From: Candidatus Poribacteria bacterium
GTDB taxonomy: Bacteria > Poribacteria > WGA-4E > WGA-3G
Length of the DNA stretch: 64,000 nucleotides
Reading direction: 5' to 3'
Assembly: GCA_963663765.2 (NCBI GenBank)
Contig: CAXXUA010000003.1
Location: 46,042-110,041, forward strand
In this document: in pieces, positions 961-61,916 of the stretch
Layout of the letters: each line of letters opens with the position of its first letter
Numbering within the stretch: the stretch's first letter is position 1
The notes under the pieces: generated by a model
The model's input: the letters and a program-made list of their open reading frames with translations, nothing else
Told to the model about the DNA's origin: nothing
The model's database searches: none
Made by a program: the position numbers and the translations under genes

Positions 961-1119
961 TTATACCAATTCTAATAAATCTTGTCTCATTAAGGAATTC
1001 TACTGTTTACTGGCAGGGGGTTACTCTCTTCGGTAGGAGCGACCTCCCGGTCGCGACCGTGATGTCGCTCCTACCAGATTTCCGCTGCTAATGAGACATT
1101 ATCACATGAAAATGGTATT
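961..1119. mobile_element. MITE-like element family A, copy 1 (inverted relative to copies at 31.1 and 39.5 kb)
   Basis: Terminal inverted repeats ttataccaattctaataaatcttgtctcatta / taatgagacattatcacatgaaaatggtatta. Central GTAGG-headed palindrome ggtaggagcgacctcccggtcgcgacc... carrying a few mismatches. Confidence 0.7.
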
Positions 1120-1134
1120 ATGTCAATTTACAGA

Positions 1135-3603
1135 TCAACGTGCATCGTCAATATCAGAGTATATACGCAGATCAGGAAGTTGCTTGCGAAGTCTGCGAAT
1201 TTGGGACATATCTTGAATTGGATTTTCTTGAATATGCAGAACTTCTAACTGTTTCAAGTTTTCTATAGGACTAATGTCCCGAATTTGGTTTTTAGCTAAT
1301 CTTAACAAATTTAGCTTTGTCATTCCCACAATCGGTTTGAAGTCCCGAATTTGATTATTGGAAAGTGATAGACTTGTAAGTTGTGTTATGTTTTGAAGCG
1401 GGGAAATATCTTGAATTTGGTTATCGTAAAGGCTTAATTCTGTAAGACGGGGCATTTTAGCCAATACTGTTCCGAGTTGTGTGATATTCTTCAGCTGATT
1501 ATTTGACAATGATAGCGTCGTTAACCGCGTCAATGTAACAAGAGGGGTTAGGTCCTGTAAAGGACAATCCCGAATCGATAAGTTGGTGAGTTGTTTTAAT
1601 TGTGCAATTGGTGTGATGTCACTGATTTGTGTTCCGCGGATTCTTAATGTGCTGAGATGCCTCAGTTCTGACAACCATGTGATGTCGCTAATCTGATTAT
1701 TGACAAGCGATAAGTTGTTAAGATGTTTCAACCTACTGATAGGTGTAAAGTCCATTATTGGGTTATCCCCGATACGTAGGGAGTCAAGTAGTTTCAAATT
1801 TGAGATGGGTGTTATGTCGGTAATCTGATTTTCTTGGATTGTTAAGTGCCAAAGAAATCTCAATTCCGCGAGAGGTGTAATATCATTAATTTGGTTACTT
1901 GCAATAAATAATTCACGTAAGTTCTTTAGTTTGGCAAGCGGTGTGATGTCTGTAATTTTTCCACGGCTTATTGATAAGGTCGTGAGTTGTGGCAATTCTT
2001 CAAGGGGTGTAAGGTCGTTGATCTGATTGTGTTTAGTTTCATCTATAACGTGAACTTCCCTGAAACGCAACGTTGTAAGATTCTTCAATCCGACAAGTGG
2101 ACTGATGTCTCTAATCTGATTTGCACCGAGTGATAAAATACATAGATTTGTTAAACCAGCAAGTGGGGTTAGGTCACTTATTTGGTTGTCTGAAAGGAAT
2201 AAGAATTCTAGCTGTGTTAAACCAGCAAGTGGGGTTAGGTCACTTATTTGATTATATGACAGTTGTAGACTTTTCAATTTCATCAGCCCTTTTAGGGGGG
2301 ATATATCTTTAACCTGATTTCCTGCAACCTTTAAAGTCTCTAAACTTGTAGCTAATTCCAATCCAGTGAGATCAGTTATACCTTCAAGGTAGTCCAATTT
2401 TTTCAACGACCTGAGTCTCTCTTTAGTAATAGAGCTGGTTTGGCTTAATCCGAGTGCTTTTCGCACTGCAGCAGCTAAGTTCGGATCGGGTATAAGCTGG
2501 GATTGCGAATTAGAGGTTGCATCTTGGATTGGAGCGTCCTTTGAAGGTAAACTTTCCTGTTGTTCACTGTACTTTTGTTCACTGATCTGTTTAATATTTT
2601 CCACAAGACTCATATCATCGATCTGATTGTGTGCAACTTCTAAGTACTCCAGTTGTGATAAGTCATTCAGCGAGGAAATATCGGTAATCACGTTGTGTTT
2701 GAGTTCCAAACGTTTTAACTTTGTCAACCCTTTGAGAGGCGAAGTATCTTTGATGTCATTGCGATTGAGATATAGATATTCAAGATCAGACAATGTACTA
2801 AGCGGGGTTAGATCACTGATTTCGTTGCTGGTTAGCGATAATGTCTTGAGTTTTGTAAATCCTTTGAGGGGTGTAATGTCACCGATTTCATTGCGTTCAA
2901 GTTTTAATACCGTGAGTTGGGTGAGGTCTGAAAGCGGCATAATGTCACTTATTTCGTTGTAGGAAAGGTAGAGTTTCTCCAGCATCGTCAAGTTTTTAAG
3001 ACCCGAAATATCTGAAAGTTGATTATTTAAAAGCACTAATGTTTTCAGTTGTGGTAAATCAGAGAGTGGTGTAATGTCACTGATTTCATTGTGACCAAAA
3101 TTTAAGGATTTAAATTGTTTCAAATTCGAGAGTGGTAATAGATCTACAACATGGTTCGCAGAAATATCTAAATGAGACAATTTCTTTAGTCTACTAACCG
3201 GTTTAATGTTGACAATATCATTATATTCAAGCCATAGAAATTCCAACTTTTTCAATTTTGACAGCGGCTTGATGTCTGTTATCTGATTTTTGGTAAGTCC
3301 TAATAAATACAAGTTTTTTAATTTACTAATAGGTGTGAGATCTGAAATCTGATTATGGTAAAGTGATAAAGTTGTCAAGCCTTTTGCTTGTTCTAAACCT
3401 GTTAAGTCTTTTATATCTTTCTCCGAGACCGTCAGGTCTTTTAGTTCTTTCAGTTTATTGTTCATGATAGGTTCATCAGGAGCTAAACCCAATTCTTCCC
3501 TGATAGCTGCAGCTAAATTCGGGTCGGGGAACTCTACGGGTTCTGGTGCGGAACAGCTACTAAATGCAATGAGTAGTACAAAAAGCAGGCAAATCTGTTT
3601 CAT
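1135..3603 (-). CDS. LRR surface lipoprotein, two-module (internalin-like 22-aa repeats)
   Basis: 822-aa ORF. Signal peptide ending in Cys (LLIAFSSC). Cap motif PDPNLAAAIREELGL occurs at the N-terminus and again mid-protein (PDPNLAAAVRKALGL). Dozens of LxxLxLxxNQIxDIxPL repeats. C-terminal cap NPIQDMSQIRRLRKQLPDL. Confidence 0.85.
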   Translation of the reverse strand: MKQICLLFVLLIAFSSCSAPEPVEFPDPNLAAAIREELGLAPDEPIMNNKLKELKDLTVSEKDIKDLTGLEQAKGLTTLSLYHNQISDLTPISKLKNLYLLGLTKNQITDIKPLSKLKKLEFLWLEYNDIVNIKPVSRLKKLSHLDISANHVVDLLPLSNLKQFKSLNFGHNEISDITPLSDLPQLKTLVLLNNQLSDISGLKNLTMLEKLYLSYNEISDIMPLSDLTQLTVLKLERNEIGDITPLKGFTKLKTLSLTSNEISDLTPLSTLSDLEYLYLNRNDIKDTSPLKGLTKLKRLELKHNVITDISSLNDLSQLEYLEVAHNQIDDMSLVENIKQISEQKYSEQQESLPSKDAPIQDATSNSQSQLIPDPNLAAAVRKALGLSQTSSITKERLRSLKKLDYLEGITDLTGLELATSLETLKVAGNQVKDISPLKGLMKLKSLQLSYNQISDLTPLAGLTQLEFLFLSDNQISDLTPLAGLTNLCILSLGANQIRDISPLVGLKNLTTLRFREVHVIDETKHNQINDLTPLEELPQLTTLSISRGKITDITPLAKLKNLRELFIASNQINDITPLAELRFLWHLTIQENQITDITPISNLKLLDSLRIGDNPIMDFTPISRLKHLNNLSLVNNQISDITWLSELRHLSTLRIRGTQISDITPIAQLKQLTNLSIRDCPLQDLTPLVTLTRLTTLSLSNNQLKNITQLGTVLAKMPRLTELSLYDNQIQDISPLQNITQLTSLSLSNNQIRDFKPIVGMTKLNLLRLAKNQIRDISPIENLKQLEVLHIQENPIQDMSQIRRLRKQLPDLRIYSDIDDAR

Positions 3604-3609
3604 GACGTT

Positions 3610-5481
3610 TTACTCCTTATTTTGAATGTTATCAATATCAACTTTCAAATTTGGTTTATGTGTGCGTAGTCGTTGAATCGGTGAAATATCCTGAATTGGA
3701 TTCCCGCTAATAAAAAGATGTGTTAACCGATTAAAGTTCTCAATGATGCTGATATCCCGAATTTGGTTACCACTAAGGGACAATATCGTAAGACTGTTCA
3801 TTCCAGAGAGAGGGACTATGTCTTTGATTTGATTGTTGCCAATGGATAATTGTTTGAGGGATTTTATAGTTGCAATATTCGTAAGGTCACTTATCTGATT
3901 TCCATTTAACCTTATACCTAAAAGCTGGGAATGTTCCTTAAATTGAGGAATATTTATGATTTTATTTTTATCAAGCCCTAAATTGAGAAGTTTCGTTAAT
4001 CCAGTGATTACTGTGATATCACTGATCTGATTATTACTGAAGTCTAAGGACAAAAGTTTTGTTAAATTTCTGATCGGTGTGATATCGCTAATTTGATTGT
4101 CTTCAAGCGATAAAGCTGAAAGGTTCGTCAAATTATACATTGGAGAAATGTCAACAATTTGGTTTCTATCGAGATATAGAAAAAATAATCGTGTTAATTC
4201 AGCAAGGGGTGTGATGTTGGTGATATGATTATTCCTGAGATTTAACTGACTCAGTTGTGTCAATCCTGCCAGCGGTGTGATATCGCCGATTTTATTGTTG
4301 TAGAGATTTAACGTCTCAAGCTGTGTCATATTAGCAAGTGGTGCTATATCATTAATATTGTTATTGTAGAGATTTAACTTCTCAAGCTGTGTCATATTAG
4401 CAAGTGGTGTGATATCATTAATTTTATTGTTGTAGAGTTTTAATGTTTTAAGTTGTGTCAATTTCCCAAGCGGTGTGATATCACTGATCTGATTATCATT
4501 AAGCATTAGTGCTGTCAGTTTCGGCAATCCTTCAAAAAATGAAACGATAGGTGTCAGATCTTGAATTTGATTATTCTCAAGTCCTAAGTCCGAAAGTTCT
4601 TTTAATCCATTGATGTGTTCGATCTCTTTAACTTGGTTGCCTTCAAGCGATAGTCTCCGAAGTCGAGTCAATCCAGACAATGGTGTGAGGTCGCTAATCT
4701 GATTACCTTCAAGCGATAAACCCCGAAGCTGAGTCAATTTAGACAATGGTGTGAGGTCGCTAATCTGATTACTACTAAGGAATAAACCCCAAAGTCGAGT
4801 CAATTCAGACAATGGTGTGAGGTCGCTAATCTGATTACTACTAAGTACTAAGCTCGTCAGTTTTGATAATTTTGTGAGTGGTGTGATGTCTTGGATTTCA
4901 TTATTACCAATAGATAAGGTGTGCAGCTGCGACAAATTTACCACGGATGTAAGGTCTATAATTTTATTATTGGATAAAGATGATTTTTCCAATTGCACAA
5001 GTCCTGCCAAGGGTGTGATATTTTGGATTCGATTCCTTTGTAGGGATAAATCTGTAAGTTCTTTCAATCCACTGAGCGGGGTGATGTCACTAATATGGTT
5101 ACTTTCAAGAGAGAGCTTCTCAAGTCGTATTAACTCAGACAATGGAGTGATGTCCGTAATTTGATTAGAATTTAGGCTTAACGAGATAAGATTTGTTAAT
5201 CCAGCAAGAGGGGTAATATCTGAAATTTGACCACTTTTAATTGATAAACTTGTTAAATGTGTTATTTTTTCTATACCTGTCAAATCACTGATATTGTGTT
5301 CACCTGTAGATAACTTTCCTAATTCTTCCAACTTCTTTTGTGTGATAGGTTCATCAGGGGACAAACCCAATTCTTCCCGGATAGCTGCAGCTAAATTCGG
5401 GTCGGGGAACTCTACGCGTTCTGGTGCGGAACAGCTAATAAATGCAATGAGTAGTACAAAAAGCAGGTAAATTTGTTTCAT
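3610..5481 (-). CDS. LRR surface lipoprotein (tandem paralog of 1135..3603)
   Basis: 623-aa ORF. Its N-terminal ~45 aa are nearly identical to the neighbouring gene. It has ~22-aa NQISDITPL-type repeats and the C-terminal cap NPIQDISPIQRLRTHKPNL. Confidence 0.85.
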   Translation of the reverse strand: MKQIYLLFVLLIAFISCSAPERVEFPDPNLAAAIREELGLSPDEPITQKKLEELGKLSTGEHNISDLTGIEKITHLTSLSIKSGQISDITPLAGLTNLISLSLNSNQITDITPLSELIRLEKLSLESNHISDITPLSGLKELTDLSLQRNRIQNITPLAGLVQLEKSSLSNNKIIDLTSVVNLSQLHTLSIGNNEIQDITPLTKLSKLTSLVLSSNQISDLTPLSELTRLWGLFLSSNQISDLTPLSKLTQLRGLSLEGNQISDLTPLSGLTRLRRLSLEGNQVKEIEHINGLKELSDLGLENNQIQDLTPIVSFFEGLPKLTALMLNDNQISDITPLGKLTQLKTLKLYNNKINDITPLANMTQLEKLNLYNNNINDIAPLANMTQLETLNLYNNKIGDITPLAGLTQLSQLNLRNNHITNITPLAELTRLFFLYLDRNQIVDISPMYNLTNLSALSLEDNQISDITPIRNLTKLLSLDFSNNQISDITVITGLTKLLNLGLDKNKIINIPQFKEHSQLLGIRLNGNQISDLTNIATIKSLKQLSIGNNQIKDIVPLSGMNSLTILSLSGNQIRDISIIENFNRLTHLFISGNPIQDISPIQRLRTHKPNLKVDIDNIQNKE

Positions 5482-11090: not shown

Positions 11091-11376
11091 TCTTCCTCCT
11101 ATTTCTAATTCTAATATTGATTTGATACTTCACGGAAACTACCAGGAACCGCTAAACGTTTTTCAACTGGAAAACTATTATATTTTCGGTTGTGTAGTCT
11201 TACCCAATCCGAACTTTTACAACTACAACCGAGTATCCGCTGTAACATTTTCGTGTTGTTGTTTTGCGTTAAGCCTTCACCGCATTTTCAAAGGATATTG
11301 TATTGACAGATATTATACCATGTCTAAGTGAAAAAAAATATCAATCTTAGATTGCAATACCTTCGCCAATAATAGA

Positions 11377-11555
11377 CATTCTTCCAGATTGTGTGGGTAG
11401 TTGTAGCACATTCTTCCAGATTGTGCGGGTAGTTGTAGCACATTCTTCCAGATTGTGCGGTCAGTTGTAGCACATTCTTCCAGATTGTGCGGTCAGTTGT
11501 AGCACATTCTTCCAGATTGTGCGGTCAGTTGTAGCACATTCTTCCAGATTGTGCA
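11377..11555. repeat. 32-bp tandem array, ~5.6 copies (cattcttccagattgtgcggtcagttgtagca)
   Basis: Copies start at 11377, 11409, 11441, 11473, 11505 and 11537. Each unit contains GTAG followed by caca..tgtg stem arms. The array sits between inverted repeats ataccttcgcca (11358) and tggcgaaggtat (11717). Confidence 0.9.
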
Positions 11556-12147
11556 TATAAATTATTCTGTCAGATTCTATCGTCAAATTCGACGCTATGA
11601 TAAATAAAAATACTTCAACGAAAACCTGAAGTTATTTTTATTTATGTAATCCTAACAATATCACAGAGCAATGGTAGATCAACACTATATACTCATTCAA
11701 CTGAAGCACTAAAAAATGGCGAAGGTATTGATCATCTTGTCCATGTTTTTAGTGGTTCTTTCGGCAATTAATTGTTGCATAAAATAAAAGTCCAATGCTG
11801 AAGAACCCCGTAGTCATATGTTTAAGTAGTAGATCGTCAATGGAAACATATCAGGACTTATACACCCAACGGTAGGCATGCTTTGTAAGCGCGCCGGAAA
11901 CCTAAAAAATGCTGAAAATTACATCGTTTTCGTCTTAATTCTTGATTGGATCATGAAAACTGCGTAAGTCCTACATAGAATAAATACTTAGCAAGAAAAT
12001 CATTTAGTGGTTTACTCGGCAATTAATATTGGTATTTTAGACACCCTAAATTCACCCACATTTATCCCCCTGCAAGCGAGGGGAAGGGACATTTTGGTTG
12101 TTTCTGTCCGTTCTATATATAATAAATGTTTAGCGAGTAAACCATTT

Positions 12148-12360
12148 AGTTCCGTAGGAACGATATGTTTATAGAAAATGTTTTCTACCCCAATTGAGTT
12201 CCGTAGGAACGATATGTTTATAGAAAATGTTTTCTACCCCAATTGAGTTCCGTAGGAACGATATGTTTATAGAAAATGTTTTCTACCCCAATTGAGTTCC
12301 GTAGGAACGATATGTTTATAGAAAATGTTTTCTACCCCAATTGAGTTCCGTAGGAACGAC
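12148..12360. repeat. 49/50-bp tandem array, ~4.3 copies (gttccgtaggaacgatatgtttatagaaaatgttttctaccccaattga)
   Basis: Unit starts at 12148, 12198, 12247, 12296 and 12345. The units are identical, so there are no unique spacers. Confidence 0.9.
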
Positions 12361-12590
12361 ATAGAAGAATACACATATCGTCCCTACCAAATCAACGCCA
12401 AATGCGTCAAATCAAGAAATCAACGGTATGAATGCCATTAAGGCATTCCCCGTATGGCATTTGTCGGGACTAAAAAGCGATGTTCATGTTTCAATAATCT
12501 AAAATTGATGTATAAAGTTCGGTTAGGAAACCGAACCTTGTATTAACTTTCAGTAAATCTCAATAACAGAAAATTCTTAAAACTGAATAA

Positions 12591-12860: not shown

Positions 12861-13626
12861 TAGATTGAACATAGGTATACGAGTTGTGCTAAATGACTTT
12901 ATGTAAACCATTGTTTCACATAAGCATAACGTTTTGCAGGTGTCCTTCATAGCTTGAAACGATCTTCAGTCCCGACAAATGCCATACGCGCATTTGGCGT
13001 TGATTTGGTAGGGACGATATGTTTATAGAAAAACGTCATAGTACATCCTCTTTAGTCCCGCCAAATGCCATACGCGCATTTGGCGTTGATTTGGTAGGGA
13101 CGATATGTGTGCATTATAAACCTAATATTATGTAAAAACTTTGAAAACAATGGGTTAACTGGCACAAGTCGTTAATTGTATATTTCACTATAAGTTACTA
13201 ATTGGTAAAATTGGTAATTTTTTCTTCGGAAAAACCCAGTCATAGACAAGATTCGTGTACAGAATAAATTACCAATTGCCTGTAAGTAGCGACTTGTGCT
13301 AAATAACTATTTATTAAAAATTACTTCACATAGACAAGAGGATTTAACCGTCGTTCTTTTGCTTTGGATGATCTTTAGTCCCGTTGGGACGAAATGTTTA
13401 TATATCATACCCAATATATGTGAATTTAGTATAAACATTTAGTTAACTGGCACAAGTCGTTAGGTATGTAATTGTCGATTATTCGCAAATTCTAACACAG
13501 GTTTCTTATGGTAGGAGCGAACTGTCGGTCACATTCTGTCGAATGCAATATGTGCATTCGACGTTGATTTGAAAATCCCGGTTCAGACAATACTTCGGTA
13601 TTGAAAACTCTACCCGTTATACAAAC

Positions 13627-15543
13627 CTAATCTACATCACCAGGATCTTTTACCCATAACAGTACGGTGCCATCATTGCTACCGCTCGCGAGCGTTTTTC
13701 CGTCTGGACTGAACGCAACGCTAGTCACAGGATACGTATGAGCTTTCAACTCAATAATGAGGGTACCTGTGCGGACATCCCACAAACTAACGGTTCTGTC
13801 CCAGCTGCCACACGCGAGTATCTTACCATCAGGACTGAACGCAAGGCAAAGGTTACCTCTATTCCCTAATGTTACTGTACGAACAGATTCACCTGTCCGC
13901 GGATTCCACAGACGAATAGTCCCATCCCCCGATAGACTTGCTAACAAAGTCCCATCCGCACTATAGGCAACGGTATTTACAAAACCCGTATGACCTTTCA
14001 AACGAGAGACAACTTTATTCGTGTTCGTATCCAAAAGCATCACAGTGTTATCATCACCACACGCTAATTGAGAACCATCCGGACTATACGCAATGCAATA
14101 TATCATACTTACCGAGTCTTCTACCGTAAGGAATTGATGTTTACCTGTCTGGAGGTCCCATAGATTCATGGAAAAGTCTTGATGTGCTCTTAGAAGTTTC
14201 TTTCCATCAGGACTGAAAGCCATGTCTGAAATCCAAAATCGATTATCTTCCAGTTCCTTCAGAGATTTACCTGTTTCTACATTCCATAAGCGAATAGTAT
14301 TGTTTACATCGACACTTGCAATGTTCTTTCCATTAGGACTGTAGACAACGATAGAGACTTGATTTGTATGTCCTTTCAGCACGCGCAGGGATTCACCCGA
14401 TTGTGCGTCCCATAAATGAACGGTGTTGTCTCTGCTCCCGCTTGCTAAAATCTTACCATCCGGACTGAACGCAACGCTATTGACACCATTTGTATGCCCT
14501 GTTATCGTCCGCAGCTGCTTGCCTGTGTTTGTCTCCCATAAACGCAAGGTGCCGTCCCGGCTGCCAGTCCGCAGTGTTTTGCCATCCGGACTGAATGCAA
14601 TGCTCAACACAAAAGAAGCATGTCCTTTCAACGTGCGGATGTGGGCTCCCGTCTCTGCATCCCACAGCCTTGAGGTATTGTCCCAACTTGCACTCGCCAG
14701 CATCTTTCCATCCGGGCTAAAGACAACAATATCAACATAATTTATATGATCATGCAACATGTACCGTGTAGTGCCTGTTTGCACGTCCCACACCAGCACG
14801 TTGGTGTCATCACTGGCAGTCGCAATTGACTTTCCATCCGGACTGAACGATACGTATTTTATTTTTTCTGTATGTCCTATGAATGTCTGCAGCAGTTCAC
14901 CCGTTTGCACATTCCATAACCGTGCAGTTCTGTCTTTACTGCAACTCGCCAGTAATGAGCCGTTTGGACTAAACGCAACACTTATGACACCCGATTCATG
15001 TCCATCTATTGTCTGAAGATGTGTACCTGTTCGCACATTCCATAAACGGATATTGTGATCGTAACTTCCGCTCGCTAAAAGTGTCCCATCCGGACTGAAC
15101 GCAATACCTTCAACACCGTCTTCATGTCCTATCATCGTGCGTAGTTCTGTGCCTGTGTGCGCATCCCACAGACGGATAGTCATGTCTGCACTCCCGCTTG
15201 CCAACAGTGAGCCATCTGGACTGAACACTGTCATCAAAACAAAGTCGGTGTGTCCTGTAAGAAATTGGAGTGGTTTGTCAGTGTGTGCGTCGTAAATCCA
15301 AATACCAGTGCTACACGAGACCGCCAAATACTTTCCGTCATGAGAATAGGTTATATTTCCTCTTATCCCACCTTTACCGAGCCGTGCTCTTGCACCCTCG
15401 GGTAAGTTTTGTAAATGCCAATCTTGTTTGTCTTGTTTGTCTTGTTTGTCTTGTGCGAAAGTATTTTGTGAAATAACGCACGTCGTCAAAACCAAAGTTG
15501 TCGTCAAAACCAAAGTTAATATCAGAATCAGTGTTTTTTGCAT
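13627..15543 (-). CDS. secreted WD40-repeat protein
   Basis: About 14 WD40 units (GHT..V.SVAFSPDG..LASGS.D.T.RLWD). I prefer the ATG at 15543 (MQKTLILILTLVL... signal). A QDK x3 linker is encoded by a 9-bp microsatellite. Confidence 0.85.
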   Translation of the reverse strand: MQKTLILILTLVLTTTLVLTTCVISQNTFAQDKQDKQDKQDWHLQNLPEGARARLGKGGIRGNITYSHDGKYLAVSCSTGIWIYDAHTDKPLQFLTGHTDFVLMTVFSPDGSLLASGSADMTIRLWDAHTGTELRTMIGHEDGVEGIAFSPDGTLLASGSYDHNIRLWNVRTGTHLQTIDGHESGVISVAFSPNGSLLASCSKDRTARLWNVQTGELLQTFIGHTEKIKYVSFSPDGKSIATASDDTNVLVWDVQTGTTRYMLHDHINYVDIVVFSPDGKMLASASWDNTSRLWDAETGAHIRTLKGHASFVLSIAFSPDGKTLRTGSRDGTLRLWETNTGKQLRTITGHTNGVNSVAFSPDGKILASGSRDNTVHLWDAQSGESLRVLKGHTNQVSIVVYSPNGKNIASVDVNNTIRLWNVETGKSLKELEDNRFWISDMAFSPDGKKLLRAHQDFSMNLWDLQTGKHQFLTVEDSVSMIYCIAYSPDGSQLACGDDNTVMLLDTNTNKVVSRLKGHTGFVNTVAYSADGTLLASLSGDGTIRLWNPRTGESVRTVTLGNRGNLCLAFSPDGKILACGSWDRTVSLWDVRTGTLIIELKAHTYPVTSVAFSPDGKTLASGSNDGTVLLWVKDPGDVD

Positions 15544-15702
15544 GAGAAAGGGATCCTTATTCGGGTTGTTTGTACAGGTTTCGTTCTTAAACCAAACCCA
15601 CAAGAACAGTTATGTTAAACTGAAACTCACCATACGCACATTCATACCCTTGATTTACGGGGTTACGTTTCACATTTCTATTCAGACTAATCAGTATACG
15701 AA

Positions 15703-16832: not shown

Positions 16833-17142
16833 CAGGGTTATTTAGTTTTCAATATTTTTGATATTATTTTACTATGTCGTTAATTTTATGGGATACCATC
16901 TTGTCCAGTTCTTTAGTCCCGTAGGGACGATATGTTTATAGAAAACGAATACCCTCCACAGCTCTTTAGTCCCGTAGGGACGATATGTTTATTCTTCTAT
17001 GTCGTTCCTACGGAACTAAAGAGCGATGTTCATTTTTCAATAATTTAAAACCGATGCAGAAAGTTCGGTTAGGAAACCGAACTTGGGTATTAACTTTCAG
17101 TAAATCTCAATAACATAAAACTCTTAAAACTAAATTACCTTG
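16833..17142. mobile_element. MITE family B (TIR cagggttattYagtttt), copy with one internal 53-bp unit
   Basis: Left TIR cagggttatttagtttt and degenerate right TIR aaaactaaattaccttg. Flanking 9-mers atcagatag / atcaggtcg match at 7 of 9. The element is inserted inside an aatccgcg-type inverted repeat. Confidence 0.7.
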
Positions 17143-17366: not shown

Positions 17367-18845
17367 ATGGACCCAATTAAGGAATATCTACAACTTGAAA
17401 CACGCCGCCAATTTTTTGGTAAGTGTGCGATGGGACTTGGTGGTGCAGCTCTCGCCTCAATGCTGCCGAGTAGTATTGTGAACGCACTTGAACAGCAAGC
17501 GGGAACACGTATCGGTGGTTTACCTGAATTACCGCACTTTGCACCGAAAGCAAAACGGGCTATCTATCTATTTATGTCTGGCGCGCCCTCACAGATGGAC
17601 CTGTTTGATTACAAACCGAAGATGGGTGAATGGTTTGATAAAGACCTGCCAGAAACGGTGCGGATGGGACAACGTCTTACAACGATGACCTCTGGACAAG
17701 CGCGTTTCCCAATTGCACCGTCTATTTTTGAGTTCAAGCAGTACGATAACGGTAGTGACGGTGTATGGCTTAGTGAGTTGTTACCGCATACCGCATCTAT
17801 GGTAAAAGATATTGCCATTATCAAAAGTGTTCACACCGAGGCGATCAACCATGACCCAGCTATCACGTTTGTGTGTACCGGTGATGAAACACCCGGCAAA
17901 CCGAGCCTCGGTGCGTGGCTTAGTTATGGACTCGGTAGTGAGAACCAGAATCTGCCGGCATTCATTGTAATGAACGCGACTTGGAGCGGTCCGAAGGGCG
18001 CACAAGCACTTTACAACCGCCTCTGGGGTGCCGGGTTCCTCCCATCCGAACATCAAGGTGTGTTACTCCGAAGCCAAGGCGATCCTGTGCTATTTCTCTC
18101 AAATCCTAAAGGCATGAGTGAAAAAGCACGCAAACGCATGCTTGATTCACTTGTCAAACTGAATGAAGAACTCTACGAGGAGGTCGGCGATCCAGAAACG
18201 CACGCACGTATTTCTCAATATGAGATGGCGTTCCGTATGCAGACCTCAGTCCCTGAACTCACTGATCTTAAACAGGAATCTGATAAAGTTAAAGAGATGT
18301 ATGGTCCTGAAGTAAGCACCCCCGGGACGTTTGCGAACTGCTGTATCCTTGCACGTCGGATGATGGAGCGGGATGTCCGTTTAGTTCAAATCTTCCATCG
18401 TGGTTGGGACCAGCACGGTGACCTACCCAAGAACATTCGGAATCAGGCGCGCGATATTGACCAACCTGCAACAGCACTCGTCCAAGACCTGAAACAACGC
18501 GGCATGCTTGATGAAACACTTGTTGTTTGGGGTGGTGAATTCGGTCGGACTGTTTACTGCCAAGGTGCGCTTAAGAAGGATAATTATGGACGCGATCATC
18601 ACCCGAAATGCTTTACGCTTTGGATGGCAGGCGGGGGTATAAAAGGTGGCATCGTTCACGGAGAAACAGATGATTTCAGTTACAACATCGTCAAAGACCC
18701 TGTTTCTGTGCGCGACCTAAACGCTACGATTCTCAATCAACTCGGAATTGATCATGAAAGGTTGACCTTTAAGTTCCAAGGACTTGACCATAGGTTGACT
18801 GGTGTTGAGGAGAAAGCGCATGTTGTCAATGAGATTTTGGCGTAA
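17367..18845 (+). CDS. DUF1501 family protein (sulfatase-like fold, Tat signal)
   Basis: Twin-arginine leader [19 protein letters not shown]. The conserved blocks [30 protein letters not shown] and TEAINHDPA are typical of DUF1501. Confidence 0.85.
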
Positions 18846-39544: not shown

Positions 39545-39695
39545 TTTTCATGTGATAATGTCTCATTATCACATGAAATCTGGTAGGAGCGACCTCACGG
39601 TCGCGACCGGGAGGTCGCTCCTACCGAAGAGAGTAACCCCCTGCCAGTAAACAGTAGAATTCCTTAATGAGACAAGATTTATTTGAATTGGTATA
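39545..39695. mobile_element. MITE-like element family A, copy inserted into a family-B left-end fragment
   Basis: The same sequence as 31144-31303 with one mismatch in the palindrome. It is immediately preceded by cagggttatttagttttaggtatttttgatg (39498-39544). Confidence 0.75.
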
Positions 39696-47320: not shown

Positions 47321-47349
47321 TTGACACAAACATCCAATCGTGATAAAAT
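47321..47349 (+). promoter_or_regulatory. near-consensus sigma70 promoter TTGACA-17-TAAAAT driving the structured-RNA candidate
   Basis: ttgaca at 47321-47326, a 17-nt spacer, taaaat at 47344-47349. Confidence 0.6.
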
Positions 47350-47356: not shown

Positions 47357-47603
47357 AATATTGATAGCAAGCGCGAACTCTGAACTGAACCAAATGCTAC
47401 AAATTCTAGGGCGAAAGATACTCAATCTCACCGTCCTGATTACAACCGCACAAAAGAGGCGACGGTCTCGCAGTTGTGATAAATCCTGTGAGTGAATCCA
47501 AGTAGCCGGTAGCCTATCGGTTACCGGTTGCTTTTATACACTGGAAAGTTAGAGTAGGATTCATACACAGGAAGGGAACACGCACCCCGTGTTTTTCCTT
47601 TCC
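47357..47603 (+). ncRNA. candidate structured sRNA or 5' leader, copy 1
   Basis: It starts just downstream of the promoter. It has a 5' hairpin ttgatagc../..gctacaa, the conserved segments agggcgaaagatac and aaaagaggcgacggtctcgcagttgtgataaatcctgtgagtgaatcc, a GTAG-headed hairpin ccggtagcc-tatc-ggttaccgg, and then the hairpin ggaagggaacacg..cgtgtttttcctttcc (47570-47603). Confidence 0.5.
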
Positions 47604-47665
47604 TGTTGGCAGACTACAAACACACCATAAATACAAGGTATACAACACATTTTAGGGGAGAGATC

Positions 47666-48148
47666 ATGGCAAATGGCATTTTACAAAATCTGACAAAGGA
47701 CTTAGAGCTTTACGCAAGATTCATAGCAAAATTATCCGCATTGGTTGCCCATAGGTTTATTATGAAGCCATCATCAAATACTGTGCACCCATCAGATATT
47801 GAAAAGCAATCAGATATTGTGCACCATTCAATTACTGTGCAGCCCTCAGATATTGTGCTCCCATCAGGGGACATAATAAAACATTGGACTTCAGTTATTT
47901 ACACTATCGGTGATCATGTCTATCACTTCGTACACTCCGCATCAAACATACTTATACCAATAATTCTATCTCTCTTACTAATCAGAGTGAGTTGTAAAAT
48001 CTTGCTACTTAGACCAGATAGAACTCCTGGATACCTGCTCATACTAATTTATAGAATACCTGGTATCTCACATATCAGGAACTGGCTACGAAAATTGAAT
48101 ATCACTTTTAAAAAAGAGGAATCCCATTTCCATAAATCACAAGAGTAG
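47666..48148 (+). CDS. hypothetical small membrane protein
   Basis: ATG at 47666 lies 4 nt after an aggggagag RBS; the track start at 47606 is a TTG inside the leader. There is one clear TM segment (NILIPIILSLLLI). The central part is encoded by degenerate tcagatattgtgc repeats. Confidence 0.4.
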   Translation: MANGILQNLTKDLELYARFIAKLSALVAHRFIMKPSSNTVHPSDIEKQSDIVHHSITVQPSDIVLPSGDIIKHWTSVIYTIGDHVYHFVHSASNILIPIILSLLLIRVSCKILLLRPDRTPGYLLILIYRIPGISHIRNWLRKLNITFKKEESHFHKSQE

Positions 48149-48203: not shown

Positions 48204-48400
48204 TTGATGGATTCACACAATCGCGAGACAATAAAACTTGATATTGATAGCACAAGCGATCCAATCTAAACACACTTGCTATCAACTCCAGGGCGAAAGA
48301 TACACAATATACAAAAGAGGCGACGGTATCGCAGTTGCGATAAATCCAGTGAGTGAATCCAAAGTAGACGGGAAGCAAGCAACCACCGAGAGCTTCGCTT
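48204..48400 (+). ncRNA. candidate structured sRNA, copy 2 (includes a weaker promoter-like TTGATG-17-GACAAT)
   Basis: It aligns with copy 1 from the -35 box through gtgagtgaatccaa. The 5' hairpin ttgatagcacaag../cttgctatcaa is retained. The terminal hairpin has a completely different sequence (ggaagcaagc..gcttcgcttcc) but occupies the same position after GTAG. Confidence 0.45.
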
Positions 48401-48539
48401 CCTACCCTACTAATTACACCCTCCCCTAAATATTTTGAATGTTCAGAATGCCCCACAACGCATTTCTTAACAACCCCGTGTGGTGTAACTCTCAGCTGTT
48501 TCCATGTTTTAGTGCCTCACACGAATTTTCGCACACGTT

Positions 48540-55384: not shown

Positions 55385-57286
55385 ATGTTTGAACTTAAAA
55401 ACAGAACCATATTATTCGTGGGTCTACTGATTCTTCTAAACAGCATGGCTTGTCAACAGAACCCGCGACTTCCAGAACCGTTGGAAACCAATTATGATCC
55501 CTCTACCCAACTCAGTTTACCAGAGGGTGCCAAGGCACGTATCGGCAAAGGTACAATACAAGGAATTGAATATTCCGCGGATGGAACTCGACTCGCTGTG
55601 TTTAGTTCTATCGGAATCTGGATTTACGATGCTAAGACACTTCAAGAACTGTCACTACTTACGGTACATACGGATTACGTTTATAGTGGAAGCATTTCGT
55701 CAGACGGCACCAGAGTTGCAGCTGGTTCTCTTAAGGGTTCAGTCCATTTATGGAACACTAATACCAGTGAACGCTTATACACTTTGAATGAACATACCTT
55801 AACGGTGGATGCCATCAGTTTCTCTCCAGATGGAACGATACTTGCCACTGGGGGTTATGATGGAAAGTTGCATTTGTGGCGGACTGCCACAGGTGAACAT
55901 CTAAAAGGATCAACAAAACACACGAAACCTATTACTCACATTAGGTTTTCGTCAGATGGTAAAATGCTTGCTACCGCTACTGAGAGTGAAAAAAACAAAA
56001 AAGGTGGCACAGTATATTTGTATGATGTACAAACAGGCGCGACTCTAAAAACACTTAATGGACATGATGACGACGTTAACAGCATTGATATTTCACCAGA
56101 TGGTAAAACACTGGCAAGTTGCAGTAAAGATGAGACCGTTCGTTTGTGGAATATTACCAATGGAAATAACATAAAAACATTATCAGGACATAATACTTGG
56201 GTCAAAAGTGTGCGTTTTTCTCCAGATGGTGAAACCCTTGCAAGTCAATCTTTTTCCGGCAAAATACTCTTGTGGAATGCTTCCACGGGCAAAAGGCTGA
56301 GTACACTTGACGACGATATTTTTCACTATGGAAAAGGAATATCTTTTTTACCTGATGCAGTAACAATTGCCAGTGCCAATCATAAGGACATTAATTTTTG
56401 GGACATTGAGTCAAGCAAACTCCTAAAGACACTTAGAGGGTATACGACTTGGATTGAAAGTGTGGACTTTTCTCCGGATGGCAAAAAAATCGCAACCGGC
56501 AGCGACGACAGACGGGTACGTTTGTGGGATGCTACAACTTGTAGACTGCTTACTATCTTTGATCAACATACATCCAGAGTCAAAAGTGTGTGTTTTTCAC
56601 CGGATGGCAACACAATCGTAAGCGGCAGTGAAGACAAAACAGTACGTTTGTGGCATGCAACGACCGGTAAACTTTTGAGAACACTTAAAGGGCATACAGG
56701 AATTGTCTTGAACGTTGATTTCTCACCAGATGGACGAAAGATTGCAAGCTGCGGGTGGGACACAACAGTACGTTTGTGGGATGCAAATACCGGTAATCAC
56801 CTTAGAACTCTACAGCATGACAAAATCGTCAATACCGTGTGTTTTTCACCAGACAGTCGAAAAATCGTAACTGACACTAACAAACTGCACTTATGGAGAG
56901 TTGCTACTGGTAGACGTTCAAGAATCATCGCAGACAATCTGGGATATGGTGTGAGTTTTGCGCCCAATAGCAAGCAATTCATAACTGGTGGACACAACAA
57001 AGTATATTTGTTCCCCGTTTCAAGGCTCGGATTCCGCAAAGAGTTTACAGGAAACACAGGCGGTTGGGTCAAAAACGTCAGTTTCAGTCCAGATGGACAC
57101 ACAATCGCAAGCGCAAATAAAAACGGAACAATTACTATATGGAATATCTCAACGAGTGAAGCATTACGGAATTTGACAGGGCATGGTTCTGCCGTCAATG
57201 AAGTTGCTTTTAGTCCGGATGGACGCACAATCGCAAGTGCAAGTAGTGATGGGACAGTGCTTTTGTGGGATGTTCCACTACAATAG
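55385..57286 (+). CDS. secreted/lipoprotein WD40-repeat protein (paralog of 13627..15543)
   Basis: Signal peptide with Cys (LLILLNSMAC). It shares the block LPEGAKARIGKGTIQGIEYSADG..GIWIYDA with the other WD40 gene. About 13 WD40 units. Confidence 0.85.
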   Translation: MFELKNRTILFVGLLILLNSMACQQNPRLPEPLETNYDPSTQLSLPEGAKARIGKGTIQGIEYSADGTRLAVFSSIGIWIYDAKTLQELSLLTVHTDYVYSGSISSDGTRVAAGSLKGSVHLWNTNTSERLYTLNEHTLTVDAISFSPDGTILATGGYDGKLHLWRTATGEHLKGSTKHTKPITHIRFSSDGKMLATATESEKNKKGGTVYLYDVQTGATLKTLNGHDDDVNSIDISPDGKTLASCSKDETVRLWNITNGNNIKTLSGHNTWVKSVRFSPDGETLASQSFSGKILLWNASTGKRLSTLDDDIFHYGKGISFLPDAVTIASANHKDINFWDIESSKLLKTLRGYTTWIESVDFSPDGKKIATGSDDRRVRLWDATTCRLLTIFDQHTSRVKSVCFSPDGNTIVSGSEDKTVRLWHATTGKLLRTLKGHTGIVLNVDFSPDGRKIASCGWDTTVRLWDANTGNHLRTLQHDKIVNTVCFSPDSRKIVTDTNKLHLWRVATGRRSRIIADNLGYGVSFAPNSKQFITGGHNKVYLFPVSRLGFRKEFTGNTGGWVKNVSFSPDGHTIASANKNGTITIWNISTSEALRNLTGHGSAVNEVAFSPDGRTIASASSDGTVLLWDVPLQ

Positions 57287-57460
57287 ATTATTGGAAGGAC
57301 AGTTTAGCTAGAGAAAACTGATTTCTTGCTAAGTGTGCAACTTAACCTTGAAATCTACAAGATATAAAGAATCCTGTAGTACATAATCCGCGTAATAGTA
57401 AAATCCATAATTACTTGGATACGACGGTAGGTTCGGTTAGAAAACCGCACCATAAGCGTC

Positions 57461-58958
57461 AATTTAAGAGTTTTGACCTTTTGTGGGAGGGGTTTTCAAC
57501 CTTGATTTATAGTAAAATATACAAATAAGTTGACATATCTTCTGTAGGAGCGATCTCCGAATCGCGACTGAACGCCTTGATAGTCGGGAATCGGAGTTCC
57601 CTCCTACAAACAAACTGTCAAGGTAATTGTAAAATCCAATATAAGAGAAAATGTACGTAGAATCGGGGTTGAAAACCCATCCCACAAGAGAAACACGAAC
57701 ACTTTTTTCTTATAGTGAAATATACAATTAAGTTGACATATCTTCTGTAGGAGCGATCTCCGAATCGCGACTGAACGCCTTGATAGTCGGGAATCGGAGT
57801 TCCCTCCTACAAACAAACTGTCAAGGTAATTGTAAAATCCAATATAAGAGAAAATGTACGTAGAATCGGGGTTGAAAACCCATCCCACAAGAGAAACACG
57901 AACACTTTTTTCTTATAGTGAAATATACAATTAAGTTTACACTTTTTCTGTAGGCGGGGAATGCCAATAGGCATTCATACCGTTGATTTCGATCTCCGAA
58001 TCGCGACTGAACGCCTTGATAGTCGGGAATCGGAATTCCCTCCTACAAACAAACTGTCAAGGTAATTGTAAAATCCAATATAAGAGAAAATGTACGTAGA
58101 ATCGGGGTTGAAAACCCATCCCACAAGAGAAACACGAACACTTTTTTCTTATAGTGAAATATACAATTAAGTTTACACTTTTTCTGTAGGAGCGATCTCC
58201 GAATCGCGACTGAACGCCTTGATAGTCGGGAATCGGAATTCCTTCCTACAAACAAACTGTCAAGGTAATTGTAAAATGCACTATAAGAGAAAATGTACGT
58301 AGAATCGGGGTTGAAAACCCCTCCCACAAGAGAAACACGAACACTTTTTTCTTATAGTGAAATATACAATTAAGTTTACACTTTTTCTGTAGGCGGGGAA
58401 TGCCAATAGGCATTCATACCGTTGATTTCGATCTCCGAATCGCGACTGAACGCCTTGATAGTCGGGAATCGGAGTTCCCTCCTACAAACAAACTGTCAAG
58501 GTAATTGTAAAATCCACTATAAGAGAAAATGTATGTAGAATCGGGGTTGAAAACCCCTCCCACAAGAGAAACACGAACACTTTTTTCTTATAGTGAAATA
58601 TACAAATAAGTTTACACTTTTTCTGTAGGCGGGGAATGCCAATAGGCATTCATACCGTTGATTTCGATCTCCGAATCGCGACTGAACGCCTTGATAGTCG
58701 GGAATCGGAGTTCCCTCCTACAAATAAACTGTCAAGGTAATTGTAAAATCCACTATAAGAGAAAATGTACGTAGAATCGGGGTTGAAAACCCCTCCCACA
58801 AGAGAAACACGAACACTTTTTTCTTATAGTGAAATATACAAATAAGTTTACACTTTTTCTGTAGGCGGGGAATGCCAATAGGCATTCATACCGTTGATTT
58901 CGATCTCCGAATCGCGACTGAACGCCTTGATAGTCGGGAATCGGAGTTCCCTCCTACA
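57461..58958. repeat. higher-order tandem array, 7 units of 203 or 236 bp
   Basis: The unit marker ctgtagg occurs at 57542, 57745, 57948, 58184, 58387, 58623 and 58859. The 236-bp units carry an extra hairpin module cggggaatgccaataggcattcataccgttgattt. Confidence 0.9.
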
Positions 58959-59086
58959 CCTGAAAGTGTAAGAATAATTCTAAAATCTACTATAAATTGA
59001 CGCCTATAGTTCGGTTAGAAAACCGCACCTACCAGGGAGTGTAGACATATTTTGGATTTCACTATAATATACAGGAGAATTGACTC

Positions 59087-60301: not shown

Positions 60302-60340
60302 TTATCTATTTGCAGGTAGCGTAAAAAACAACTCGTATGA

Positions 60341-61114
60341 TCAAGGGAAATCTATTTGTAAACTCTGATTTCGTTCCAAAAGTCTTTGAAGCACTCCCAT
60401 ATCCTGAATTAGATTTTCTTTGATATGTAAATGCATTAAACCCGTTAGATTCGCTATAGGATCAATGTTTCTGATCTGATTCTTATCCAATGCTAAATGT
60501 GTCAATCCTGCCAAACCAGCAAGAGGAGAAAGAACAGATATTCGATTTCCGCTAAGCCATAAGTGCGTGAGACGTTTCAAATTAGAAAGTGGTTTGACAT
60601 CACTGAGTTGATTCCGTCTGACGTTTAGCAACTGCATCTGAGTCAAGTTAGCAAGCGGCGAAATATCACTAAGTTGATTGTCCCAGAGTCCTAATTCTGT
60701 GAGTTGTGTTAACCCTGCCAGCGGCGTAATGTCACTGATTTGATTTTTGCCGAGTCCTAATTTCGTGAGTTGTTTTAAATTGGCAAGTGATGTAATATCC
60801 CTGACGTTATTGTCCCAGAACTCTAAGTATGTGAGTTGTGTCAATCCACTAATAGGTGTGATGTCGTCAATCTGATTCTTCTCAAGTTCTAAAACTTTTA
60901 AAGCTGTTGCCTTCTCCAGTCCTGTTAGGTCTTTTATACCTTTTTCTTCAGCATGGAGTTTCTCTAATTCTACCAATTTCCTTTGTGGAACAAGATCACT
61001 TACACCTAACCCCAGTGCATCTTTCACAGCAGCTAATAAGTTGGGATCTGGTATTGTTACAGATGTACTCGCCATAGCGTGATATTCCTTTACTCTAGTT
61101 TGGACAATTTTCAT
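60341..61114 (-). CDS. LRR protein without an obvious signal peptide
   Basis: Cap IPDPNLLAAVKDALGLG, 22-aa NQISDITPL repeats and the C-terminal cap NLIQDMGVLQRLLERNQSL. The start may be the ATG at 61075 (MASTSV...). Confidence 0.8.
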   Translation of the reverse strand: MKIVQTRVKEYHAMASTSVTIPDPNLLAAVKDALGLGVSDLVPQRKLVELEKLHAEEKGIKDLTGLEKATALKVLELEKNQIDDITPISGLTQLTYLEFWDNNVRDITSLANLKQLTKLGLGKNQISDITPLAGLTQLTELGLWDNQLSDISPLANLTQMQLLNVRRNQLSDVKPLSNLKRLTHLWLSGNRISVLSPLAGLAGLTHLALDKNQIRNIDPIANLTGLMHLHIKENLIQDMGVLQRLLERNQSLQIDFP

Positions 61115-61274
61115 CTTGTAGAAGTTGATTATTCAACAGAACGTCTATTTTTCTACGTGTTTCGTATATTTGTGAAACTGGAGAAAATGATGTGCTCCAG
61201 CGGAGTGCTATGTTGGCTGACAATGTGACTATAAACATATTGCTCCGCTGCAGCAAAGAAAGTTCCGTTTTGGT

Positions 61275-61916
61275 CAGGGTTATTCAGTTTTAAAAGCTTT
61301 CTGTTATTTCGATTTACTGAAAGTTAATACCCAAATGCAGTTTCCTAACTGCACCTTATACATCAATTTTAGATTATTGAAACCTGAACATCGCTCTTTA
61401 GTCCCGACAAATGCCATACGGGGAATGCCTTAATGGCATTCATACCGTTGATTTGGCCCATTTGGCGTTGATTTGGTAGGGACGATATGTTTATAGAAAA
61501 AGAGTGACCTTCCCAGCTCTTTAGTCCCGTAGGGACGATATGTTTATAGAAAACGAGTGACCTTCCCAGCTCTTTAGTCTCGTAGGGACGATATGTTTAT
61601 AGAAAACGAGTGACCTTCCCAGCTCTTTAGTCCCGTAGGGACGATATGTTTATAGAAAACGAGTGACCTTCCCAGCTCTTTAGTCCCGTAGGGACGATAT
61701 GTTTATAGAAAACGAGTGACCTTCCCATGTCTTTAGTCCCGTAGGGACGATATGTTTATTCTTATATGCCGTTCCTACGGAACTCAAGAGGAGTAGATAA
61801 CATTTATCTATAAACATATCGTCCCTACGGGACTAAAGACATGGACAAGATGGCAACACATAAAATTAACGTTATAGCAAATAATCATCAAAAAAACCTA
61901 AAACTAAATAACCCTG
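61275..61916. mobile_element. MITE family B, long copy with an internal 53-bp x5 tandem array (61478-61760)
   Basis: TIRs cagggttattcagtttt (61275) and aaaactaaataaccctg (ending at 61916). Flanking 9-mers cgttttggt / agttttggt match at 8 of 9. Internal unit starts at 61519, 61572, 61625, 61678 and 61731. Confidence 0.85.

Follow-up and report, generated by a model that had tools for sequence, protein, structure and literature searches.

We analysed a 64,000-nucleotide stretch of DNA from Candidatus Poribacteria (contig CAXXUA010000003.1; hereafter the window). The window has a G+C content of 42% and encodes leucine-rich repeat (LRR) and WD40 proteins, a TonB receptor, and IS630-like and IS982-like transposases. 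Eukaryote-like LRR/WD40 proteins are typical of sponge symbionts. The best homologue of its PhyH protein, 86% identical, is poribacterial and lies on a 4.8-Mb contig. This closest relative bears the same repeats and is not syntenic with the window. Further close PhyH homologues carry Poribacteria names. The repeats are short intergenic hairpins, many of which follow the tetranucleotide GTAG. Repetitive extragenic palindromes (REPs) tagged with GTAG, and REP-associated tyrosine transposases (RAYTs), are known mainly from Proteobacteria, with scattered cases elsewhere.

A first-pass annotation had placed all of these hairpins in a single superfamily, resembling REPs, inverted REP doublets (REPINs) and bacterial interspersed mosaic elements (BIMEs), with one GTAG(G) head. 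Our analysis divides them. We consider it probable, if well short of certain, that the intergenic DNA combines at least three kinds of miniature hairpin repeat in a mosaic, along with a miniature inverted-repeat transposable element bounded by terminal inverted repeats (TIR-MITE). Class I would be GTAG-tagged REPs, Class II insertion modules, and Class III repeats that accompany Y1 transposase genes. For comparison, we scanned one genome per species with the pattern GTAGGAGCGAYCTCCNNNTCGCGAC of families a and b. At least 114 loci matched, about 100 of them in metagenome-assembled genomes (MAGs) of many species of Candidatus Poribacteria. This result ruled out a cyanobacterial origin, which the 42% G+C and the spacers rich in repeats had at first suggested; nor is the window proteobacterial. 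The poribacterial comparison set comprises 108 loci, 851 kb in all, from about 40 other Poribacteria genomes.

GTAG-tagged hairpins of the window

The pentamer GTAGG and its complement CCTAC occur 133 times in the window. The non-coding DNA, about 16-17 kb, holds 84 occurrences, against 18.7±4.2 expected and a maximum of 30 in 200 dinucleotide shuffles. Conversely, coding DNA is at expectation (48 observed, 46.5±6.2 expected). Measured against a Markov expectation, GTAG and GTAGG are the 4-mer and 5-mer with the highest z in the non-coding DNA.

We then asked how often a hairpin begins 0-3 nt after the tag. Contexts were first collapsed to distinct 12-mers because tandem arrays inflate counts. 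In the window, a hairpin followed GTAG in 14 of 93 distinct contexts, compared with a background of 6.2% (p=0.002). The five heads that best precede hairpins (ACGG, GGTA, GTAG, AGGA and TAGG) are all shifts of ACGGTAGGA. In the poribacterial loci, GTAGG came first when the 1024 pentamers were ranked as predecessors of perfect hairpins (6 bp or longer), one of which followed it in 75 of 1124 distinct contexts (6.7%, compared with 1.24%; p=5e-31). The enrichment is therefore a property of the phylum. Thus, many different GC-rich hairpins do carry a GTAG(G) tag at the foot, far more often than chance would give, both in the window and in Poribacteria. The excess over shuffled DNA, counted here in the window, and the position at hairpin feet, two checks that the first-pass annotation had proposed, both came out in favour of the tag.

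The tag is not universal. The elements are short extragenic palindromes of 23-42 nt in multiple copies, with enrichment limited to non-coding DNA. A 5' GT[AG]G lies at the hairpin foot, or 1-2 nt from it, in families a, b1, b2, e, e2 and h. Family c has the tag in 9 of 32 copies, and families d and f do not have it intrinsically. Nor is a GTAG head consistent in families i (GGGGTTGAAAACCCC), j (TTCGGTTAGGAAACCGAA), k (CCAGCGG hairpins at 61.2 kb) and x (CCAAATGC..GCATTTGG). Hence, the view that essentially every module begins with GTAG(G) survives for a, b, e, e2 and h and fails for d, f, most of c, i, j, k and x. We propose that Class I consists of a, b1, b2, e, e2, h and the minority of c copies with GTAGG. 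These elements consist of GT(A)G(G), 0-2 spacer bases, a GC-rich stem of 5-9 bp and a short tail, and occur as inverted doublets (the REPIN or 'double-foot' form) and in BIME-like tandem arrays.

Families a and b contain the clearest examples.

1033-1074: perfect 42-nt 'double-foot' REP doublet of family a, GTAGGAGCGACnTCnCGGTCGC then GACCGnGAnGTCGCTCCTAC, inside a palindrome of ~165 nt (953-1118)
31190-31231: family a doublet inside composite palindrome 31142-31303; fold -27.6 kcal/mol, z=-8.4
39583-39624: family a doublet inside composite palindrome 39558-39694
L040 3510-3679 and L058 1896-2014: ~165-nt palindromes with an a doublet in other species
12634-12658/12677-12701 and 12770-12794/12811-12835: two head-to-head pairs, b2 on the minus strand and b1 on the plus strand
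57507-58964, plus strand: seven tandem units of 203 or 236 nt in a BIME-like array, each with a tail-to-tail doublet of b1 (plus) and b2 (minus)

Each a or b element consists of GTAG, GA, a 5-6 bp stem, a loop of 4-6 nt, the second arm of the stem and a GAC tail. Families b1 and b2 have the loop CTCCGA in common and differ by two base pairs of the stem, flipped with compensation (57544-57607 and others), as the first-pass annotation had recognised. The three families are plainly homologous to one another. The families were therefore not all unrelated in sequence as first supposed. In the poribacterial loci, more than 60 different stems follow GTAGG; there, the GG of the tag often begins the stem.

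The a doublet forms a perfect hairpin of 20 bp, and the b1/b2 doublet an imperfect one (-19.6 kcal/mol, z=-5.9). Doublets generally fold at z from -4 to -8. On folding, both kinds thus join two inverted REPs in one long hairpin, as REPINs do. The ~165-nt palindrome around the a doublets (ATACCATTTTCATGTGATAATGTCTCATTA ... TAATGAGACAAGATTTATTTGAATTGGTAT) is 85-89% identical between poribacterial species. It resembles the long palindromes around GTAG-15 dimers of Anabaena variabilis. The 108 loci, which were themselves picked by the a/b pattern, hold 134 copies of a or b1.

Four units of the array at 57.5-59 kb, those of 236 nt, have b1 broken by a 35-nt d module right behind CTGTAGG. The first-pass annotation took this as an exchange of modules exactly at GTAGG. 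The A and B units do differ immediately 3' of CTGTAGG, where one has AG and the other the 35-nt block. The junction at 57.9 kb is not a clean insertion, however, because AG has been lost.

Judged by this anatomy, a, b1 and b2 are textbook GTAG-type REPs in inverted doublets. The published GTAG-1 and GTAG-2 REPs have GTAG, 'GW extra bases', a 5-6 bp stem and a '3 bp tail' (Di Nocera et al., 2013, PMC3733652). The likeness to a and b covers the 5' GTAG, the GW, the GC stem of 5-6 bp, the 4-6 nt loop and the 3-nt tail; the inverted dimers, the clusters, the complementary stem changes and the several families per genome are also as here. Superfamilies of GTAG REPs are known in which one genome has several families, the REPs form inverted dimers and clusters, and the tag can degenerate to GYAG; besides Proteobacteria, their hosts include Cyanobacteria, Chloroflexi and the PVC group (PMC3733652). 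In TnpA-Y1 subclass 2.5 (Bertels group 3 RAYTs), short REPs have their tetranucleotide 1-2 nt from a short stem, and a 'double-foot' form has been described (Quentin et al., 2018, PMC6006769). Poribacteria (42% G+C) had not been reported as a host phylum of GTAG-1/2 REPs. The tag here is usually GTAGG, with GG often opening the stem, and longer conserved palindromes and array units of 200 nt surround the REPs. REPINs and Escherichia coli BIMEs similarly combine two inverted REPs into a long hairpin and form tandem mosaics. The alternation of b1 and b2 matches that of the E. coli Y and Z REPs, subtypes that differ at compensated stem positions. The array units of the window, at 203/236 nt, are much longer than E. 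coli BIMEs and include other modules. Of the proposed likeness, the GTAG-1/2 build of a and b is supported, and inverted doublets, tandem mosaics and nesting occur. A single head common to nine families is not supported.

The same REP occurs in another phylum. On contig L092 of a Sulfuricella sp. MAG (JASJPA010000044.1; 62% G+C), an open reading frame (ORF) scores 141 bits on NF047646, the REP-associated tyrosine transposase model, and has the motifs DHFH, WQ and YVVANP. Three copies of GTAGGAGCGACCTCCCGGTCGCGAC, identical to the family a 25-mer of the window, flank this RAYT gene in a REPtron at L092 5928-6521. Similar REPs occur in Thiobacillaceae, in Pseudomonadales, in one Gammaproteobacteria MAG and in one Verrucomicrobiia MAG. 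The identity of the REP, despite a G+C content of 62% in one host and 42% in the other, suggests that a REP/RAYT pair was transferred between phyla.

The remaining tagged or partly tagged families are as follows.

35792-37313, both orientations: arrays of c, G[T/C]AGGCGTGCTTTGTAAGCGCGC, interrupted by the MITE; most copies have CTGCAGG, not CTGTAGG
26031-26686: c singletons with a CCAACGGTAGGCG head (26031, 26621) and 32-nt arrays
26316-26350 and 26744-26778: d modules that split two c copies
11872-11894, plus strand: c singleton headed by GTAGG, with 94% identity to a composite of 124 nt in metagenome contig L134
25732-25773, plus strand: e, GTAGG, a GGTTGGGT..ACCCAACC hairpin and a CATARGCGTCAATTTAAG tail
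25916-25956 and 26506-26546, minus strand: other copies of e
57427-57462, plus strand: e2, head and tail as in e, stem TTCGGTT..AACCGCA; partner at 58997-59032, minus strand
11376-11554, plus strand: g, tandem array of 32-nt units (GTTGTAGCACATTCTTCCAGATTGTGC); GTAG overlaps the stem, which is weak and has 5 bp
19001-19023, minus strand: h, one GTAGGGGCGGGGTCTCCCCGCCC hairpin

Family c had been counted as about 40 GTAG-headed copies. We found 32 strict copies, 9 with GTAGG and 23 with GCAGG, and 21 of the latter lie within CTGCAGG. The arrays may have grown out of copies whose tag had degenerated. Outside the window, family c is rare: a metagenome scan gave three matches, none of them closely related to the window. 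The long c arrays (36755-37313 and 26074-26256) have CTGCAGG, which contains a PstI-type CTGCAG site, and the dispersed copies have C(T/G)GTAGG. This is a difference of one C/T transition in the tag.

In e and e2 the GTAGG head and the CATARGCGTCAATTTAAG tail are constant and the stems differ; other genomes add further stems between the same two ends. Thus, in b1/b2 and in e/e2 alike, the head, loop or tail is kept while the stems covary. Family h has its single window copy and one more in the poribacterial loci. Membership of g is doubtful; the family was absent from the 108 poribacterial loci. Copies of a, b1/b2, e (25732; 25956 and 26546, minus), e2 (57427; 59032, minus) and h, and the g array (11403-11554), lay where the first-pass annotation had put them.

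Insertion modules, family f and Y1 genes

Families d and x behave differently. Family d is a 35-nt module consisting of a hairpin and CGTTGATTTG, with the form GGGGAATGCC-n5-GGCATTCATACCGTTGATTTG.

23241-23331, minus strand: two d modules (GGGGAATGCC-n4/5-GGCATTCATACCGTTGATTT), each behind the GTAGGC of a truncated c element
12975-13007 and 13061-13093, plus strand: x modules ([A/C]CAAATGCCATACGCGCATTTGGCGTTGATTTG), each between AGTCCC(G) and GTAGGGAC of an f hairpin
36304-36336 and 36391-36423, minus strand: further x modules
61420-61454, plus strand: d in the loop of x, itself in the loop of an f hairpin, i.e. two-level nesting; second case at 12417-12451, minus strand

The first-pass annotation gave d about 12 copies and a GTAG head of its own. 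There are 10 copies, eight after GTAGGC and two after CCATAC. Aligned copies show d splitting various hosts, and the GTAGG before it thus belongs to the host repeat. In the window, the GTAGGC ahead of d is the 5' part of a split c element (GTAGGC^GTGCTTTGTAAGCGC, with the caret at the junction, at 26316-26350 and 26744-26778). Elsewhere, d splits family a in loci L108 and L112 and sits in a b2 loop in L044, exactly at AACTCC^GATTCCC. In L073, d splits x in the loop (CATAC^GCG), just as at window positions 61420 and 12417 (minus). Its 5' flanks accordingly vary (CCATAC, CTCC, GACC and others), and in other genomes are many sequences ending in C. Excising d on paper restores intact host repeats.

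Module x is equally precise. The empty f site AGTCCC-gta-GGGAC occurs 37 times, and four window copies are split by a 33-34 nt x module (CCAAATGCCATACGCGCATTTGGCGTTGATTTG). We propose that d and x, at 33-35 nt, form a separate class, Class II, of elements built of a hairpin and (ATAC)CGTTGATTTG. Their insertion site would be C^G, in most cases within the loop of another repeat.

Family f has 28 cores in the window, with the format GTCCC-gta-GGGAC, gatatgtt and TATAGAA.

12148-12390, plus strand: 49-nt array of units made of a GTTCC-gta-GGAAC hairpin and GATATGTTTATAGAAAA, ending in the inverted doublet GTAGGAACGACAT..ATATCGTCCCTAC
16915-17017, plus strand: f singlet and doublet
23044-23136, plus strand: f units with an ata loop, which lack GTAGG, and a doublet
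36210-36400: f singlet, doublet and x-interrupted copies, all within the MITE
61476-61834, plus strand: 53-nt array of 5 units, and doublets, within the MITE

The GTAGG of f had been read as a head. It is in fact composed of the 3-nt loop gta and the 3' arm of GTCCC-gta-GGGAC, and variants have ata or gtt loops.

Repeats of this format accompany Y1 genes in Poribacteria. Locus L045 (444-962) encodes a 157-aa Y1_Tnp protein (PF01797, 97 bits; NF033573, 74 bits). Its motifs PDHIHIL, SWQTGYG and YIENQETHH are those of TnpA-Y1 subclass 1.2, an assignment based on motifs and not on phylogeny. The protein has thousands of homologues. The best 120 are 68-96% identical, and many lie on Mb-size contigs with one or two per contig. 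We examined seven different poribacterial Y1 genes (L045, L115, L116-122, L125, L126-133, L137 and L138), all standalone and without tnpB. Those present in several samples keep the same syntenic position. All seven are bracketed by arrays of one type of repeat, whose stem has 5-7 bp and whose loop has 3-4 nt; a linker of 6-8 nt then leads to TATAGAA or a close variant of it. At most of the seven, the downstream copies are inverted with respect to the upstream ones. The stems differ from gene to gene (GCACC/GGTGC, GCCCC/GGGGC, GCTCC/GGAGC, GCACTCC/GGAGTGC), and the L138 array includes AGTCCC-gga-GGGAC. Identical Y1 proteins can have arrays of different length: 7 copies in L129 and 9 in L130, 2 in L116 and 7 in L117. 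The last upstream copy, which may supply the Y1 promoter, stops about 20-30 nt before the start codon.

Because f has the exact format of these repeats, its GTAGG is a lineage-specific loop and not a head. Relatives of f with agc, aga or gga loops have no GTAGG. In the scheme that we favour, f, with its 5-bp stem, 3-nt loop, 8-nt linker and TATAGAA, would constitute Class III, the cognate repeat of standalone Y1 genes resembling subclass 1.2.

Published members of subclass 1.2 have DH[IV]H, WQ and Y---Q--HH motifs, ~148 aa and low copy number; they are mostly cyanobacterial or from Bacteroidetes, with no insertion sequence features and no associated REPs (Quentin et al., 2018, PMC6006769). The poribacterial proteins agree in their motifs (DHIH, WQ, YIENQETHH), their ~157 aa, their low copy number and the lack of tnpB. 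They differ in that 7 of 7 genes are bracketed by hairpin and TATAGAA arrays and in that the repeat is also dispersed, as family f.

Most f arrays of the window lie inside two full copies of the TIR-MITE. Its ends are CAGGGTTATTYAGTTTT, its target duplications are 8-9 bp, and its passengers are f, x, d and j modules.

36128-36555: TIR-MITE with ends CAGGGTTATTCAGTTTT and the 9-bp duplication CAAACTGCA; carries f, x and j and sits in the c array
61275-61916: second full copy, duplication GTTTTGGT; carries an f array; the region described in the first-pass annotation ends where this copy ends on the right
16833, 22962, 25541 and 39498: partial left ends

Other features of the window

1135-5481, 13627-15603, 19195-21282, 55385-57286 and 60341-63984: numerous LRR (66-nt periodic) and WD40 repeat proteins
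17367-18845 and 21334-22812: two DUF1501 paralogues of 492 aa each, with one LRR gene between them
47405-47540 and 48289-48405: paralogous non-coding units that flank the ORF 47606-48148

The two non-coding units have a common part, AGGGCGAAAGATAC...GAGGCGACGGTnTCGCAGTTGnGATAAATCCnGTGAGTGAATCCAA(A)GTAG, followed by differing terminal hairpins. Unit 47405-47540 ends in a terminator-like hairpin with a T-run, and a near-consensus promoter-like site lies at 47321-47349. Neither unit has an Rfam match, and no Rfam family matches anywhere in the window. A reading of the hairpins in general as terminators was rejected, since most have no T-run behind them. A CRISPR array was also rejected; the arrays are head-to-tail whole units without unique spacers.

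The spacer between the FGGY and PhyH genes is orthologous in two poribacterial species, and is 3.1 kb long in one (L123 6910-10001) and 0.4 kb in the other (L124 9603-10001). The longer spacer is full of f, x, d-like and GTAGGTCGGGTAG modules and also holds a DDE transposase. The shorter one holds a single composite.

Origin of the repeats

In characterised systems of E. coli, Stenotrophomonas and Marinomonas, GTAG-dependent cleavage and strand transfer by RAYTs are established (PMC8266576). The E. coli enzyme needs GTAG for binding and cleavage, and with the Marinomonas REP, which has a 5-bp stem 2 bases from GTAG, the tetranucleotide guides the choice of cleavage dinucleotide (PMC8266576). 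By analogy with such REPtrons, Class I elements would have spread, now or formerly, on single-stranded DNA by means of a HUH/Y1 REP-associated tyrosine transposase. The enzyme would bind GTAG and use it as a guide to the cleavage site. This would give the best mechanism so far for a tag that is kept while stems change by compensated substitution. We infer that a RAYT or Y1 enzyme actually moves copies in this genome. Non-orthologous composites, precise nested insertions and the unequal orthologous spacers (0.4 and 3.1 kb) are indirect indications of mobility. In different poribacterial species the composites, ~25-165 nt long and 80-89% identical, turn up again at sites that are not orthologous.

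The search for the enzyme and for recent movement produced several results that weigh against this mechanism. A motif regular expression, phmmer and two hidden Markov models were applied to all ORFs of the 114 loci and the window. The only hits were the Sulfuricella RAYT and one poribacterial Y1. The window itself has no Y1 or RAYT ORF, as the first-pass annotation had said, and the 851 kb of poribacterial DNA around a and b REPs yielded no classical (class-2) RAYT. Of the 120 homologues nearest to the Sulfuricella RAYT, those with an organism name come almost entirely from Proteobacteria, and no poribacterial name is among them. No strain-level polymorphism between empty and filled sites was seen for any Class I element; in an alignment of L116, L117 and L118 made for such a comparison, indel boundaries were not clean. 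Many copies lie in tandem arrays, which are able to expand by slippage or unequal exchange without a transposase. When 1507 ORFs from REP-bearing loci were clustered, only large paralogous families appeared and no REP-linked gene. The loss of AG at 57.9 kb is a further point against. The Class I enzyme may lie elsewhere in the genome, may have been lost, or may have been replaced by subclass-1.2 proteins.

We weighed three other explanations against the mosaic. The repeats might be immobile now and be kept by the host for structure or regulation, either as RNA hairpins that serve transcript stability or termination or as binding sites of a protein that recognises GTAGG in DNA; they would multiply by tandem duplication, recombination and hitch-hiking on MITEs. 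We regard this as unlikely, although window copies are mostly in tandem arrays, f arrays ride in the TIR-MITE with its target duplications, the G·T-compatible asymmetry of the f doublet favours one strand, and no transposase was found nearby. REPs have also been reported to act in mRNA stability and termination (PMC3733652). Against it stand the ~25-165-nt composites at non-orthologous sites across species, the precise 33-35 nt insertions within other repeats and the occurrence of the same REP in a REPtron of another phylum. Moreover, the repeats have no Rfam match and no consistent position relative to gene ends.

The first-pass annotation, for its part, would have nine unrelated hairpin families with one meaningful GTAG(G) head, a single RAYT-type enzyme and swaps exactly at GTAGG. 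GTAGG is indeed the top hairpin-preceding pentamer, and junctions fall beside it twice, with x 5' of GTAGGGAC and d 3' of CTGTAGG(C). We nonetheless judge this account decidedly improbable. It is already contradicted for d, which has varied 5' flanks and whose removal restores host repeats, and for f, whose relatives with agc, aga and gga loops lack GTAGG. In addition, 23 of 32 c copies have GCAGG, a, b1 and b2 are homologous, and several families are untagged. Even less credence is due to the idea that GTAGG is mainly a favoured target for insertion, much as TTAC is for IS608, and that small hairpin elements of different kinds gather 3' of it without its belonging to them. The d modules immediately after GTAGGC (8 of 10 window copies) and the x junction that abuts GTAGG fit a target. 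Elsewhere, however, d follows many different C-ending sequences, x sits 5' and not 3' of GTAGG, and the GTAGG of a and b travels with the hairpin in every copy, also in other phyla.

Known mobile elements also bear on the mosaic of three classes. IS200/IS605 elements have distinct left and right hairpins, a fixed 5' target tetranucleotide, a subclass-1.1 TnpA (Y---Q) and often tnpB. They are like the poribacterial system in their Y1 HUH enzyme, hairpin-defined ends and guide tetranucleotide 5' of the hairpin, and like the small modules in lacking terminal inverted repeats and target duplications. Unlike them, the elements here are single hairpins of 25-40 nt, and the Y1 genes lack tnpB, keep fixed syntenic positions and have inverted copies of one and the same repeat on either side, a REPtron-like layout. 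The single hairpin, the Y---Q--HH motif and the variable C-ending 5' flanks of d also set these repeats apart from miniature IS200/IS605 elements. The small dispersed repeats (SDRs) of Nostoc are another parallel. Elhai and co-workers are said to have described them in Genome Research in 2008 as hairpins of less than 40 nt (21-27 nt), nested in themselves, in other repeats and in mini-transposons. SDR families reportedly have structure, not sequence, in common, and the mobilising enzyme was reportedly unknown. SDRs so described resemble d and x in their nested insertion into other repeats; in this comparison by description only, d and x differ in their 33-35 nt, their CGTTGATTTG end and their phylum. 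REPINs and RAYTs of Nostoc have been analysed previously (PMC3116915).

The GTAG-REP system is known, and its host phylum, Poribacteria, is new. Our literature search found no paper joining Poribacteria to REP, RAYT, REPIN or IS200. Two newer leads, both drawn from sequence comparison, are the REPtron-like bracketing of subclass-1.2 Y1 genes and the loop-homing modules of 33-35 nt. A broader proposal can be made, tentatively and with the odds somewhat against all its parts holding together. Poribacteria would harbour several layers of single-strand-DNA hairpin elements, beyond classical REPs. Subclass-1.2 Y1 proteins would be domesticated, each amplifying, and bracketed by, its own hairpin and TATAGAA family; the 33-35 nt CGTTGATTTG modules would home to C^G loops; and the GC-rich GTAGGAGCG... 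REP would have crossed phyla between Poribacteria and Betaproteobacteria.

If true, the 33-35 nt modules would be among the smallest mobile DNAs known, and their precise nested insertions would bear on how very small repeats, such as the Nostoc SDRs, move. The arrays around subclass-1.2 Y1 genes point to a function that can be put to the test, in a group of enzymes with no known substrate. The GTAG-REP system would be extended to an uncultivated phylum of sponge symbionts, and the identity of the family a REP with that of a proteobacterial REPtron would offer a concrete case for interphylum movement of REP/RAYT pairs. For Poribacteria, the repeats would explain the large and variable intergenic regions, and are relevant to assembly and binning of these genomes.

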